Assembly (NCBI GenBank): GCA_021733985.1
Contig: JAIPJT010000008.1
Span: forward strand, 13,092 to 77,091
Direction: 5' to 3'
DNA: 64,000 bases
DNA from: Victivallales bacterium
Lineage (GTDB): Bacteria > Verrucomicrobiota > Lentisphaeria > Victivallales > GWF2-38-69
The notes beneath the pieces are model-generated. The model was not told the DNA's origin and did no database searches. It saw only the letters and a list, made by a program, of their open reading frames with translations. How positions within the stretch are numbered: position 1 is the first letter of the stretch; each line of letters opens with the position of its first letter. A program made the position numbers and the translations under genes. Positions 17,590-45,307 of this stretch are shown here, in pieces.

Positions 17590-18414
17590 ATGAATATCAG
17601 CCCTTATAACTCTATTGAAACTTTAAATGCAATAGAATCGAGACTGCGAAAAAATAAAAGAGTATTTTTTGTCCGTTTCGGTGACGGTGAAATTGTAAGC
17701 ATGATGGGTAAAGACCACAGAAACTACTCTTATAGCCCTCAGCTTCAGAAGGAACTAACTGAATCTTTTAAAATAAAAAATAAAAATTATCTAAAAGGTA
17801 TCGCAGTTAATATCCCATATGAAAAGGGAATGTCAAGAGGTGTATTTCTTTCACATGATCAAAACAGCAAACTGATAGACTTTCTGACAACGAATAAACT
17901 AATAACTATCAAAACAGATTTATACAGTGCTGTTTCCTTTTTATATATATCTGCTTTTAAACCGGAATTAGTCTATAATTTTTTTGAAAAATATATCAGG
18001 CCTGTTCCTGCTTTGTTCATAGGGAGTACTTCTCCTGGTATGGTAAAAAAATTGTATGGAGAAAATACTAAATATATCAAAATACCAAGTAAAAATTGTT
18101 ATAATTCTATTGACTCATGGTGGCCAAAAGTCATAGAAGAACTCAGGGGCGTTAAACTTATTTTACCATCTGCAGGCGCTGTCTCTAATGTAATAGCAAA
18201 AAGGCTATGGTATCTCGAAAAAGATATCAATGTTCTTGATATAGGCTCTCTTGTTGATGCACTGGAAAATAAAACAACGCGGACATGGATCCGTTTAGTT
18301 GGTCACCGTGTGCAGAAAATACTGCCGGCGGAACATAGGAACAACAGTTTTACTGATAAAATTAAATATTTTAAAAAAGATTTATATTATTTATTTCGTC
18401 AATTTAAAAGATAA
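17590..18414 (+). CDS. Putative GT-D-fold glycosyltransferase (DUF1792-like)
   Basis: 274-aa ORF. VFFVRFGDGE near the N-terminus matches the RFGDGE signature I associate with DUF1792/GT-D enzymes. Lies in a glycosyltransferase cluster. Confidence 0.45.
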   Translation: MNISPYNSIETLNAIESRLRKNKRVFFVRFGDGEIVSMMGKDHRNYSYSPQLQKELTESFKIKNKNYLKGIAVNIPYEKGMSRGVFLSHDQNSKLIDFLTTNKLITIKTDLYSAVSFLYISAFKPELVYNFFEKYIRPVPALFIGSTSPGMVKKLYGENTKYIKIPSKNCYNSIDSWWPKVIEELRGVKLILPSAGAVSNVIAKRLWYLEKDINVLDIGSLVDALENKTTRTWIRLVGHRVQKILPAEHRNNSFTDKIKYFKKDLYYLFRQFKR

Positions 18415-18545
18415 TTCTTGTATTTCCCGTACTATATGTTTAATTCAGTTTTATCAGCATTAAATTAAGACTTATTTCTTGTTTTAAAAATCTTCGAACA
18501 GCAGGGAAAGCTTTATCCGGTTGTTTAACGGGAACAAATTTAAAA

Positions 18546-22324: not shown

Positions 22325-23188
22325 ATGGGCAAAAACATCCCCGTCAGCTACATTATATCTTTCTATAATAATATAAATGCTTTAGAGCTGATTTTAAGCG
22401 CTCTTAAAAGGCAGACTTATAAGAACTTTGAAGTTATTATTGCAGACGACGGTTCACGAAAAGAAATTGTAGACCGGATAAAAAAACTGCACTCTCACTA
22501 TAGCTTTCCTATAAAGCATGTCTGGCATAATGATTTAGGCTGGAGAAAAACTAAAATATTGAATAAAGCCGTTACCGTTTCGGGAGGAAATTATTTGATC
22601 TTTACCGACGGTGACTGCATCCCGCATAAATGCTTTATAAAAAATCACTGGGAACAAAGAGAAAATGATAAAGTTTTAACTGGCAGAAGAGCTTTCCTTA
22701 CTAAATTCATTTCAAAGAAGCTGACTCAAAAAAATGTAGAAAAAGGTATCCTGGAAAAAAGCTTCTTAATAATATCACTGGTTATGGGTTTATTCAGGAA
22801 AGGTAAACATATCAGTAAAGGCATATACATTAAAAACCATTACTTTAGGAAATTACTAAGTAAAAAAAATAAAGAAATATTAGGAAGTAATTTCTCAATT
22901 CATAAAGAAAGTCTTCTAAAAATTAATGGTTTTGATGAACGTTATTTAGCTCCGGGCACCGGTGAAGATACAGATATTTTTGTGAGAATAAAAAATGCAG
23001 GTTTACAGGTCAAATATCTAAACCACTCTGCTATACTATATCATATTTATCATAAAATTCCTAAATCCTATGAAACCTCTGCAAACAGAAAAATTTTAGA
23101 AGAACATAAAACAAACAACACCACTTATACTATATATGGAATAAATAAAGAAACAGTTACAACTGAAAACTCTTTATATTCTGAATAA
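22325..23188 (+). CDS. Glycosyltransferase family 2
   Basis: 287-aa ORF. VSYIISFYNN...EVIIADDGS...LIFTDGDCIP (DxD) and GSNFSIHKESLLKINGFDERY...GEDTDI. Confidence 0.75.
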   Translation: MGKNIPVSYIISFYNNINALELILSALKRQTYKNFEVIIADDGSRKEIVDRIKKLHSHYSFPIKHVWHNDLGWRKTKILNKAVTVSGGNYLIFTDGDCIPHKCFIKNHWEQRENDKVLTGRRAFLTKFISKKLTQKNVEKGILEKSFLIISLVMGLFRKGKHISKGIYIKNHYFRKLLSKKNKEILGSNFSIHKESLLKINGFDERYLAPGTGEDTDIFVRIKNAGLQVKYLNHSAILYHIYHKIPKSYETSANRKILEEHKTNNTTYTIYGINKETVTTENSLYSE

Positions 23189-23437: not shown

Positions 23438-23487
23438 AAATTCAAACATTTGTTTTAAACTTTAAATTAAAACAACTGTTTGAATTT
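23438..23487. promoter_or_regulatory. 50-bp near-perfect palindrome overlapping a candidate promoter; likely TetR operator
   Basis: Arms 23438-23458 and 23467-23487 are complementary at 20 of 21 positions (AAATTCAAACATTTGTTTTAA / TTAAAACAACTGTTTGAATTT). TTGATA (23433-23438), 17 nt, then TAAACT (23456-23461) overlaps it. The palindrome ends 33 bp before the tetR ATG. Confidence 0.45.
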
Positions 23488-23519: not shown

Positions 23520-24146
23520 ATGAATACTAAAGAAAAAATTTTATTAACAGCAGCAGAAGAGTTTGCTAAAAACGGTTATCACCGCACTACAATTCGAGAA
23601 ATATGCGAATCAGCCAAAGTCAACATTTCTGCAATAAATTATCATTTTAACAGCAAAGAAAATTTATATAAGACTGTTGTGGATTATTTATTTGAAAAAG
23701 TGCTTAATGACAGCATAGAATTTAATTTTACTAACTTAAAGGAATGGAAGACTGAATTCAAAAAGCTGATCCTTGATTATCTTGAAAAGGTAATGGGCAA
23801 ATCCTTATACGGTTCATTCCTGAACAGAATTCTTTTCCGTGAAATGATAGATCCATCAATAATTTTCTATACAATTCACAAAGAATACATCCAAAAACAC
23901 TTTTCAAGGCTAAAAAAATTTATCAATTATATATCGGTACAGGCAGACAGTGAAGAAAATTTAAATTTACTGGTTTATACCTTAGCCTCTCAGTATATTT
24001 TTTACGGGCAGAATAAATATTTAGTTTCTTTAGAGCTTGGAGACGAATATTTGAACAGTCATGAAAATCTGGATTACCTCGCAGGTTTTATTACAGAAAA
24101 CTGTTATTCAATATTGAGAAGTAGAAAAAAGATAAATCTTCTGTAG
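23520..24146 (+). CDS. TetR/AcrR-family transcriptional regulator
   Basis: 208-aa ORF. N-terminal HTH KEKILLTAAEEFAKNGYHRTTIREICESAKVNISAINYHFNSKENLY. Confidence 0.85.
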   Translation: MNTKEKILLTAAEEFAKNGYHRTTIREICESAKVNISAINYHFNSKENLYKTVVDYLFEKVLNDSIEFNFTNLKEWKTEFKKLILDYLEKVMGKSLYGSFLNRILFREMIDPSIIFYTIHKEYIQKHFSRLKKFINYISVQADSEENLNLLVYTLASQYIFYGQNKYLVSLELGDEYLNSHENLDYLAGFITENCYSILRSRKKINLL

Positions 24147-42885: not shown

Positions 42886-43383
42886 ATGGGAAAAAAACTA
42901 AAACCGCTGTGGGCTCCATGGAGGATCGAATATATACTCAGCCCTAAAAATGGAGAATGCTTTTTATGCAACCGCGAAAAAGATAATGATAAACCGGATG
43001 ATTTTATGGTAATTGCACGCGGTAAAAAAGTTTTTGTAATACTTAACGCATATCCATATAATTCCGGTCACCTGATGATAACCCCTTATGAGCATATAGG
43101 GGATATTTCTTCACTCTCCAAAGAAACACTTCATGAAATGATGGAAGTTTGCACAGCAGCCAAAAACACACTTAATAATACTATGAATCCTGATGGATTC
43201 AATATAGGTTTCAACTTGGGAACAGCAGCAGGAGCAGGGCTGAAAGAACATATCCACATGCATATTGTGCCAAGGTGGATTGGAGACACCAACTTTATGC
43301 CGGTTATCGATAATACAAGAGTCATACCACAGGCTTTAAGGGATACAGCGGATATTTTAAGGAAAAAATTTGTATTTATCTGA
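42886..43383 (+). CDS. HIT-family nucleotide hydrolase/transferase
   Basis: 165-aa ORF with histidine triad HIHMHIVPRW, and NAYPYNSGHLMITPYEH upstream. Confidence 0.8.
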   Translation: MGKKLKPLWAPWRIEYILSPKNGECFLCNREKDNDKPDDFMVIARGKKVFVILNAYPYNSGHLMITPYEHIGDISSLSKETLHEMMEVCTAAKNTLNNTMNPDGFNIGFNLGTAAGAGLKEHIHMHIVPRWIGDTNFMPVIDNTRVIPQALRDTADILRKKFVFI

Positions 43384-43626
43384 ATTACTGTTATATTCGG
43401 CACTTTGAAAATTAATTGATTCTACAATTATAATGTTCTGTTTCTGCATTCCCTGCAGCGTTCCTTAACTCTAAAATACTTTTACTACTTTTAAATCTTT
43501 TGTTTATCTTAATAAGAAAAAGTTTCCAGGGTATTCTTAAGGAATTGTATAAACACATTTTTTAATTTTTTTTGTATTTATTGTTTGTATTATTTTTATA
43601 ATATGATAATATAAAATTCATTTGCC

Positions 43627-43711
43627 GCTCGGGTGGCGGAATTGGCAGACGCGCATGGTTGAGGGCCATGTGGAGTAATCCGTGGGGGTTCGAGTCCCCC
43701 CCCGAGCACCA
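43627..43711 (+). tRNA. tRNA-Leu (GAG)
   Basis: Manual cloverleaf, 85 nt: GCTCGGG TG GCG GAATTGGCAGA CGC G CATGG TTGAGGG CCATG, long variable arm TGGAGTAATCCGT, then GGGGG TTCGAGT CCCCC CCCGAGC A CCA. Confidence 0.9.
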
Positions 43712-43719
43712 TTAAATAC

Positions 43720-43915
43720 AATTAGATGTTGCACGAAAAGGTTTCATATTCTGCGGCTCAGCACTTTGTGTTATTTTTGACTTTTTACTATATATTTCAT
43801 TATTGGAATATTGGATTTTTTCAGTAAAACGACGCAAAACTGCTAAAAAAATTACCGTTACGAATGGATTACTCGAAACAGGTAGTCCTTGAGTCTTTTC
43901 GTGCAATATCTAATT
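43720..43915. repeat. 196-bp element bounded by 21-bp terminal inverted repeats, between two tRNA genes
   Basis: AATTAGATGTTGCACGAAAAG (43720-43740) versus the reverse complement of 43895-43915 (AATTAGATATTGCACGAAAAG) matches at 20 of 21 positions. The interior shows further short complementary blocks (GTTTC/GAAAC, ATTC/GAAT, CGG/CCG, AGCA/TGCT, TTTGTG/CGCAAA). Confidence 0.55.
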
Positions 43916-43948: not shown

Positions 43949-44025
43949 GCCCACATAGCTCAGTTGGTAGAGCACTTCCTTGGTAAGGAAGAGGCCCACC
44001 GGTTCAAGTCCGGTTGTGGGCTCCA
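43949..44025 (+). tRNA. tRNA-Thr (GGU)
   Basis: Manual cloverleaf, 77 nt: GCCCACA TA GCTC AGTTGGTA GAGC A CTTCC TTGGTAA GGAAG AGGCCC ACCGG TTCAAGT CCGGT TGTGGGC T CCA. The variable loop appears to be 6 nt. Confidence 0.88.
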
Positions 44026-44110: not shown

Positions 44111-45307
44111 ATGGCAAAACAAAAATTTGACAGAAGTAAAGAACACATTAACATCGGTACTATTGGTCACGTTGACCATGGTAAAACAACTCTTACTGCC
44201 GCAATAACAAAAACAATGTCTAAAAAATTCGGTACTGAAGTAAGAAATTTTGACCAAATCGACAACGCTCCTGAAGAAAAAGCAAGAGGTATTACTATCA
44301 ATACCGCTCACGTCGAGTATGAAACAGAAAAACGTCACTATGCTCATGTTGACTGTCCAGGACATGCGGACTATATTAAAAATATGATTACAGGAGCCGC
44401 TCAAATGGACGGTTCTATTCTGGTTATCGCCGCAACAGACGGACCAATGGCTCAGACACGTGAACATATCCTTCTTGCGCGTCAGGTAGGAGTTCCTGCA
44501 ATCGTTGTATTCCTTAATAAAACTGATCAGGTTGATGACGAAGAACTTATCGAACTCGTTGAAATGGAGGTCCGTGAACTTTTATCCGCTTATGACTTCG
44601 ACGGAGATGAAACACCGATTATCCAGGGATCAGCTCTTAAAGCTCTTGAAACCGACGGTAATCCTGAAGATCCTTCCAACAAATGCATACTTGATCTAAT
44701 GGATGCATGCGATAAATATATTCCTGCTCCTCAACGTGCAATTGACCAGACATTCCTGATGCCTGTTGAAGACGTTTTCTCAATTGAAGGTCGCGGTACA
44801 GTTGTAACAGGAAGAATAGAACGCGGAATAGTTAAGACCGGTGATTCTGTAGAAATTGTTGGTATTAAAAATACTCGTAAGACTACAGTTACAGGCGTGG
44901 AAATGTTCCGTAAAATTCTCGATGAAGGTGAAGCAGGAGATAATGTAGGCTGCCTTCTTCGCGGAGTAAAAAAACATGAAGTTGAACGTGGTCAGGTACT
45001 TGCAAAACCGGGTTCAATTACACCGCATACTAAATTCAAAGCTGAAATTTACGTTCTGTCTAAAGATGAAGGTGGAAGACATACTCCGTTCTTCACAAAT
45101 TACAGACCACAGTTTTATTTCAGAACAACTGATGTAACCGGTATCATTACACTTCCTGAAGGAACAGAAATGATTATGCCTGGAGATAATGCACAGATTA
45201 ATGTCGAATTAATTGCCCCAATCGCTATGGAAAAAACACTCCGTTTCGCTATTCGTGAAGGTGGCAGAACTGTCGCATCAGGCCGTGTTACTGAAATAAT
45301 TGAGTAA
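44111..45307 (+). CDS. tuf: Elongation factor Tu
   Basis: 398-aa ORF: [28 protein letters not shown]..., DCPGH, NKTD. Confidence 0.97.

Follow-up and report, generated by a model that had tools for sequence, protein, structure and literature searches.

Prokaryotic MITEs are shorter than 500 bp, have terminal inverted repeats (TIRs) of 4–30 bp, are AT-rich, and target AT-rich intergenic DNA (PMC10969869). Their transcripts form stable stem-loops, and their direct repeats decay with age (PMC10969869). Copy number can be low: for MITEAba12 it is as low as one per genome (PMC10969869). Two foldback MITEs resemble the element that we describe here, namely Coxiella QMITE2, which is ~190 bp long with TIRs of 23–29 bp and direct repeats of 7–9 bp (PMC10969869), and the Correia element of Neisseria, where RNase III cleaves Correia-containing transcripts at the paired TIRs (PMC10969869). 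The likeness extends to size, a TIR of ~21 bp, AT-richness, an intergenic position, the lack of coding sequence and a predicted stable hairpin, and our element, as we predict, also shares with Correia a position within a transcription unit. Two further systems are similar in form. 6S RNA (RF00013, and 6S-Flavo, RF01685) is a long imperfect hairpin of ~190 nt with a closing stem, and the processing stems of rRNA operons (the RNase III sites flanking 16S and 23S) place a duplex around a precursor segment, as in our element, where the expected RNase III cut would likewise separate the products.

The element separates two tRNA genes that precede tuf in a 64-kb stretch of DNA from the MAG of an uncultured Victivallales bacterium (Lentisphaerota); we refer to this whole stretch as the window. 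The features of the locus are as follows.

42886–43383, + strand: HIT-family gene (165 aa), the conserved upstream neighbor and our synteny anchor
43585–43612, + strand: promoter-like block (TTGTAT, 16 nt, TGa-TAATAT), from an alignment of relatives, with hexamers read by eye
43627–43711, + strand: tRNA-Leu(GAG) with encoded CCA (ARAGORN, Rfam), 8 nt upstream of the element
43720–43915, + strand: inserted element, 196 bp, 32% GC, with a predicted fold that makes its full length one imperfect hairpin; relatives lack it in the homologous spacer
43720–43740, + strand: left TIR, AATTAGATGTTGCACGAAAAG (pattern search, self-alignment, simulations)
43726–43827, + strand: 33-aa ORF, MLHEKVSYSAAQHFVLFLTFYYIFHYWNIGFFQ, with its ATG inside the left TIR and a hydrophobic, aromatic-rich C-terminal half
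43895–43915, + strand: right TIR, CTTTTCGTGCAATATCTAATT, complementary to the left TIR at 20/21 positions
43949–44025, + strand: tRNA-Thr(GGT) (ARAGORN, Rfam), 33 nt downstream of the element
44111–45307, + strand: tuf, which encodes EF-Tu (398 aa), the conserved neighbor on the downstream side

The first-pass annotation of this DNA had described TIRs that match at 20 of 21 positions and begin a short distance after the CCA end of tRNA-Leu. Both descriptions are borne out. The left TIR, AATTAGATGTTGCACGAAAAG, agrees with the reverse complement of 43895–43915 at 20/21 positions, with coordinates and sequences as described, and 8 nt separate it from tRNA-Leu. The sole mismatch places G43728 opposite T43907, which is a G-U wobble in RNA of the + strand and a C-A mismatch in the − strand. 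The window contains just two inverted repeats of at least 20/21 within 600 nt, one of them being the TIR pair. None of 100 first-order Markov simulations produced an inverted repeat of this quality within 600 nt, and the expected number of matches to the 21-mer in shuffled sequence is 0. The GC content of the element (32%) can be compared with 36% for the window and 23% for the neighboring intergenic region.

The second inverted repeat is a hairpin at 23438–23487, with AAATTCAAACATTTGTTTTAA and TTAAAACAACTGTTTGAATTT separated by an 8-nt loop. It is located in the gap between ORFs that end at 23188 and start at 23520, and could be a terminator or an operator.

The element aligns with its own reverse complement over its full length, but the agreement is uneven: it is 95% in the terminal 21 bp and only ~60%, with several indels, in the interior. 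This difference suggests that the termini are, or recently were, under a constraint of their own, as would be the case for transposase-binding ends.

The order of genes around the element is conserved in contigs of Victivallales relatives: HIT-family gene, tRNA-Leu(GAG), tRNA-Thr(GGT), tuf, tRNA-Trp, secE and nusG. The EF-Tu of the window is 100% identical to a protein from a MAG labeled Victivallales bacterium. Beyond this match, identity drops to 89–85% among 5.8 billion protein clusters, and hence there is no congener for comparison. A scan of genome contigs with EF-Tu yielded, among the matches listed, only 71–77% relatives that belong to other phyla. The spacing at the homologous loci is as follows.

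This window: Leu-Thr spacer 237 nt; HIT-to-tuf distance 727 nt
L082/L083: Leu-Thr spacer 36 nt; HIT-to-tuf distance 449 nt
L084: Leu-Thr spacer 49 nt; HIT-to-tuf distance 508 nt
L233/L234: Leu-Thr spacer 48 nt; HIT-to-tuf distance 340 nt
L087 (a more distant, GC-rich member of the Victivallales): Leu-Thr spacer 11 nt
L085/L086: Leu-Thr spacer 189 nt, with a sequence unrelated to the element; HIT-to-tuf distance 755 nt
P0005, P0006 and P0008 (gene spacing only): HIT-to-tuf distances 514, 514 and 507 nt, similar to L084

It had been claimed that the usual spacer in this region is short, and the relatives agree: their Leu-Thr spacers are 11, 36, 48 and 49 nt long, with the unrelated 189-nt spacer as the one exception. 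The comparison of this spacer in relatives that the first-pass annotation had proposed, which we made between species rather than strains, shows the element to be missing from the conserved locus in all those examined. Eight relatives were covered, five through their DNA (L082/L083, L084, L233, L087 and L085/L086) and three through gene spacing (P0005, P0006 and P0008). In the window, subtraction of the 196-bp element from the 237-nt spacer leaves 41 nt. Because relatives do not have the element and its excision restores a length that is normal for them, this comparison of sequences identifies it as an insertion specific to the lineage, in a tRNA-tuf cluster that is otherwise compact and conserved. 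The spacers of the relatives are too diverged for an alignment to map the insertion point to the nucleotide; by eye, the sole flanking motifs that can be recognized in relatives are AAGTT on the right side of the element and ATAC on the left.

Two of the relatives have peculiarities of their own. In L086, whose EF-Tu is 85% identical to that of the window, a block of ~125 nt upstream of tRNA-Thr is repeated downstream with ~80% identity (L086:2128-2254 and L086:2344-2438). In L087, the 519-aa “EF-Tu” P0002 (L087:789-2348) results from a gene call whose start was placed upstream of a normal tuf; its near-top score against the EF-Tu of the window is misleading, and L087 is informative only for the 11-nt spacer. 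The expansion to 189 nt in L086 is independent of, and unrelated to, the element, which suggests that the Leu-Thr spacer tolerates insertions. Since independent expansions are found in two of the lineages examined, the spacer stands out as a hot spot for insertion or rearrangement in this clade.

What kind of insertion is this? At 196 bp, with ORFs that match no homologue or family, the element is well under the limit of ~500 bp for short, non-coding MITEs. Its TIRs of 21 bp, complementary at 20/21 positions, are within the range of ~4–30 bp. The site is empty in relatives, with 41 nt left after excision as compared to 36–49 nt. AT-richness (32% GC in an intergenic setting of 23% GC) and a stem-loop with an MFE of −58.5 kcal/mol complete the picture. 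By these measures, the architecture of the element fits the published description of prokaryotic MITEs. We therefore consider that the element is an orphan or low-copy, non-autonomous relic of a MITE-like transposon, transcribed together with the tRNAs and cut away as these mature; we give this reading a probability of roughly 0.5. The element would have arrived by transposase-mediated insertion into a spacer that is normally ~40 nt long. The first-pass annotation had already suggested a MITE-like insertion. The insertion itself is upheld by the empty site in relatives and by the architecture, but the transposable, multi-copy part of that suggestion is not, since within the sequences covered we found no second copy, no unambiguous target-site duplication (TSD) and no partner IS.

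With regard to the TSD, there is no direct repeat of at least 5 bp around the element under any parse of its ends. Both ends read AATTAGAT, and the outermost bases are palindromic (AATTA...TAATT). As a result, three parses are equally good: TA with a 16-bp TIR, AATT with a 17-bp TIR, and AT with an 18-bp TIR. A target duplication (TA, AT or AATT) may thus be hidden within the palindromic AATTA/TAATT ends. Duplication of TA is the commonest type among bacterial MITEs, and the TA parse would match it. Nonetheless, TIRs this close to perfect point to a young insertion, and such an insertion should still show a clear TSD of at least 5 bp if its family generates TSDs at all; this counts against our reading. 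The TIR could have a link to the IS6, IS903 or IS630 families.

Our search for further copies covered, for the source genome, the 64-kb window and ~5 kb of additional flank. No second copy was detected in the window by a pattern search allowing 3 mismatches, blastn with a word size of 7, or nhmmer --max, all of which returned only AT-rich noise; the best weak match, at 18347–18445, is ordinary AT-rich intergenic DNA with a fold z-score of 0. The additional flank, taken from conspecific assemblies that include the NCBI MAG GCA_021734965.1, has no copy either, and the loci of relatives contain no homologue. Phage and plasmid BLAST gave no match to the element, and a pattern scan of IMG/VR viral contigs revealed no copy. 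In JGI metagenomes, the exact 21-mer of the TIR, with the variable base left free, matched zero contigs. When the concatenated six-frame translation of the element was compared with 5.8 billion predicted-protein clusters, no protein overlapped a homologous copy, and a literature search with the TIR core as a text string retrieved only irrelevant primer matches. An IS partner of the element would be expected to end in (A)GATGTTGCACGAAAAG. No partner with matching TIRs was found in the window, in the fetched loci (which have no long-range TIR pairs) or in viral contigs, where the matches to TIR 16-mers are single chance or coding matches with no inverted partner. Hence, the element differs from the foldback MITEs of Coxiella and Neisseria in that no second copy, clear direct repeat or partner IS was found for it, and in that it has no similarity to sequences in the collections searched.

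The viral scan brought up an unrelated sequence. Approximately 25 IMG/VR contigs (L164, L170, L175, L179 and about 20 others) share an identical 21-mer, ACCTTGATATTGCACGAAAAG, with no inverted partner. Presumably, this 21-mer is conserved phage coding sequence that is unrelated to the element.

A relaxed pattern of paired TIR cores, TGCACGAAAAG N139-169 CTTTTCGTGCA, matched 42 loci in metagenomes, as compared to a chance expectation of roughly two if about 10^12 bases are assumed. Nearly all of these loci belong to a single abundant MITE family from JGI soil and rhizosphere contigs (L088–L129). L100, L117 and L124, which resemble coding sequence, were rejected as members, as was L113, an unrelated AT-rich contig (Ga0099364) that has three direct copies and one inverted copy of TTT(T)CGTGCA upstream of an ORF for an EF-Tu-like GTPase (L113:2531-2730). 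Members of the family are 160–190 bp long, with a 17-nt TIR, GGCYTTGCACGAAAAGT, and a 9-bp TSD in 20 of 30 distinct copies; examples are L088:3314-3491, L092:1620-1796, and L093:1413-1601 and L108:2350-2539, of which the L093 and L108 copies share a contig. The interior contains a palindromic CTCTGCGTATCTCTGTGATCTCTGCG repeat (a conserved CTCTGCG-repeat), and several sub-families combine the same TIR with other interiors. Judged by the named cluster members of a neighboring gene, the hosts are Pyrinomonadaceae (Acidobacteriota). The GGCTTTG start and the 9-bp TSD are reminiscent of the IS903 group.

Is the element a member of this family? The two share a 12-nt TIR core, TTGCACGAAAAG, of which 11 nt were forced by the query, as well as a similar length and a full-length foldback. 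In contrast, the outer TIR is GGCYT in the family and GATGT in the element, with agreement at 2/5 outer positions, and the element has no TSD of 8 or 9 bp. The host phyla also differ, as does GC content (54% in the family and 32% in the element). An nhmmer profile of the family recovered only the core in the window, with E-values of 0.74 and 1.9. We rejected membership of the Pyrinomonadaceae family, since only the 12-nt core is common and the 9-bp TSD is lacking. Homology between the two is unproven, and at most they may share a transposase-binding motif.

The other possibility raised by the first-pass annotation was that of a structured RNA, co-transcribed with the tRNAs and released by their processing. 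The interior complementarity that had been noted is real. The + strand is predicted to fold into a single long hairpin of 196 nt with an MFE of −58.5 kcal/mol, 71 pairs (8 of them G-U) and z = −7.25, while the − strand has an MFE of −45.7 kcal/mol, z = −5.07 and 6 G-U pairs. The MFE structure of the + strand includes one-sided loops and a small hairpin on the 3ʹ side, and a two-sided central bubble is absent. The whole window was searched with Rfam 15 at gathering thresholds, and sub-windows of 521 nt and 214 nt were searched at E ≤ 10. No family was found in the element at the gathering threshold or at E ≤ 10, and only the flanking tRNAs score at threshold. Thus, the scan for 6S, SRP and tRNA-linked ncRNAs that had been proposed returned nothing besides tRNAs. 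The best match inside the element, KRAS_3UTR, scores 25.5 bits as compared to a threshold of 49 and is AT-rich noise. We rejected identities as 6S, SRP, tmRNA, a Y-RNA-like RNA or Acido-Lenti-1, the sole Rfam motif to have been described from Lentisphaerae, as none of them has an Rfam match even at E ≤ 10. In the case of 6S RNA, there is no covariance-model match and the MFE structure has one-sided loops only; the element also differs from 6S RNA in its 21-bp terminal duplex, in the lack of a central bubble, and in not being conserved at the locus in relatives. The identification of the element as a known structured RNA is thereby refuted, and the release of any structured RNA by tRNA processing is left without positive support, given that there is neither an Rfam match nor a homologue in relatives.

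Could the element nonetheless be a novel, lineage-restricted ncRNA gene within a tRNA operon? RNase P and 3ʹ processing would then free a hairpin of ~200 nt that might act, for example, as a 6S-like, protein-binding decoy. Such a gene is expected to be in one transcript with the two tRNAs from the conserved promoter-like block, the predicted fold of the + strand is more stable than that of the − strand (−58.5 as compared to −45.7 kcal/mol), the single mismatched TIR position forms a G-U pair in the + strand, and the terminal helix is far better kept than the interior, as a selected closing stem would be. Nevertheless, we consider this explanation rather unlikely. The 214-nt search at E ≤ 10 gave no match, 6S families and Acido-Lenti-1 included; the locus is without the element in 8/8 relatives and the fetched loci have no homologue; and counts of G-U pairs are alike on both strands (8 and 6). 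Furthermore, the MFE structure has no two-sided central bubble, and a duplex as long as 21 bp would be cut by RNase III and is seldom seen in stable functional RNAs. With one sequence only, there is no covariation signal to draw on. It is more doubtful still that the element represents a new class of structured RNA embedded in a tRNA operon, which would be stoichiometric with tRNA-Leu and tRNA-Thr, excised by tRNA maturation, regulatory or decoy in function, and possibly domesticated from a MITE.

An alternative explanation for the inverted repeats is that the foldback arose within the spacer by template switching or inverted duplication and has never been mobile. This is unlikely, in our view, although the alignment of the element to its reverse complement spans its whole length, our searches yielded neither another copy nor a TSD or partner IS, and the spacer is unstable in the clade, as illustrated by the duplicated block around tRNA-Thr in L086. 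A local quasi-palindrome is expected to decay uniformly, whereas the element has 95% agreement in its 21 terminal bp and ~60%, with indels, inside, which is the opposite pattern; moreover, neither arm resembles the spacers of relatives. Far less probable is a small-protein locus, encoding either a type I toxin-like hydrophobic peptide of 33 aa with its start codon sequestered in the closing helix, or the product of a 64-aa ORF on the minus strand. Type I toxin mRNAs are characterized by long 5ʹ–3ʹ pairing, and the 33-aa ORF does have a hydrophobic C-terminal half and an ATG within the left TIR. That ATG, however, is preceded by AATTAG rather than by a Shine-Dalgarno sequence, whereas tuf has GGAGG, and no homologue was found in any frame among the protein clusters, nor a Pfam family. 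The hydrophobic codons can be ascribed to the T-rich arm, of which this ORF is probably a by-product. The minus-strand ORF (43712–43906) exists as the first-pass annotation had listed it, and the view that it is non-coding is supported: neither it nor the short + strand ORFs have homologues in the protein collection or belong to a Pfam family. An assembly artifact is comparably improbable. The source is a metagenome-assembled genome, and conspecific Logan assemblies break in tRNA-Leu (~43655–43661) and in tRNA-Thr (43966), so they provide no independent confirmation of the element. Still, the breaks are at the anticodon of tRNA-Leu and within tRNA-Thr, and we attribute them to paralogous tRNA genes and not to the element; artifactual foldbacks are perfect palindromes, whereas the element is imperfect and has indels, and we saw no sign of an artifact.

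How might an essential operon accommodate a MITE-like insertion of this kind? The promoter-like block at 43585–43612 is nearly invariant in four relatives, being at the equivalent position in L082, L084 and L086, whereas the remaining intergenic region is not conserved. A T-run precedes it, 14 nt separate its end from tRNA-Leu, and its sequence can be read as a −35 hexamer with an extended −10; a consensus promoter scan did not list it, and the assignment of the hexamers is our own reading. The Leu and Thr tRNAs, 11–49 nt apart in relatives, are presumably co-transcribed there. In the window, a motif scan found no terminator-like site between the two tRNAs, and we therefore place the element, tentatively, within the precursor of the tRNAs. 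Transcription would start at the conserved promoter-like block upstream of tRNA-Leu and carry the element along in a Leu-Thr(-tuf) precursor. This RNA would fold into the 196-nt hairpin, whose 21-bp closing duplex would bring the two tRNAs together. The hairpin could then be removed by an RNase III-type cut in the duplex, with RNase P acting at tRNA-Thr and trimming of the tRNA-Leu 3ʹ end completing the removal. We propose the RNase III cut because the 21-bp duplex resembles the paired TIRs of Correia. What the sequence itself shows is the insertion, the predicted fold and the lack of a terminator motif, whereas the transcription of the element, its fold in vivo and its cleavage by RNase III are all predictions. 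Unlike the stems that serve processing in rRNA operons, this duplex, in our reading, surrounds no functional RNA and appears to be a recent, lineage-specific acquisition rather than a conserved feature of the operon. Removal of the hairpin during tRNA maturation would explain why the insertion is tolerated in an essential, highly expressed operon.

What is the significance of this element? If our reading is true, it is a modest find: an undescribed small inverted-repeat element in an uncultured lineage of the Lentisphaerota. Its significance would be greater only if the hairpin were a stable functional RNA, a question that one sequence cannot decide. It would also illustrate that a tRNA-tuf operon, though essential and highly expressed, can accommodate a 196-bp hairpin in its spacer, probably through removal of the hairpin by tRNA processing and RNase III.
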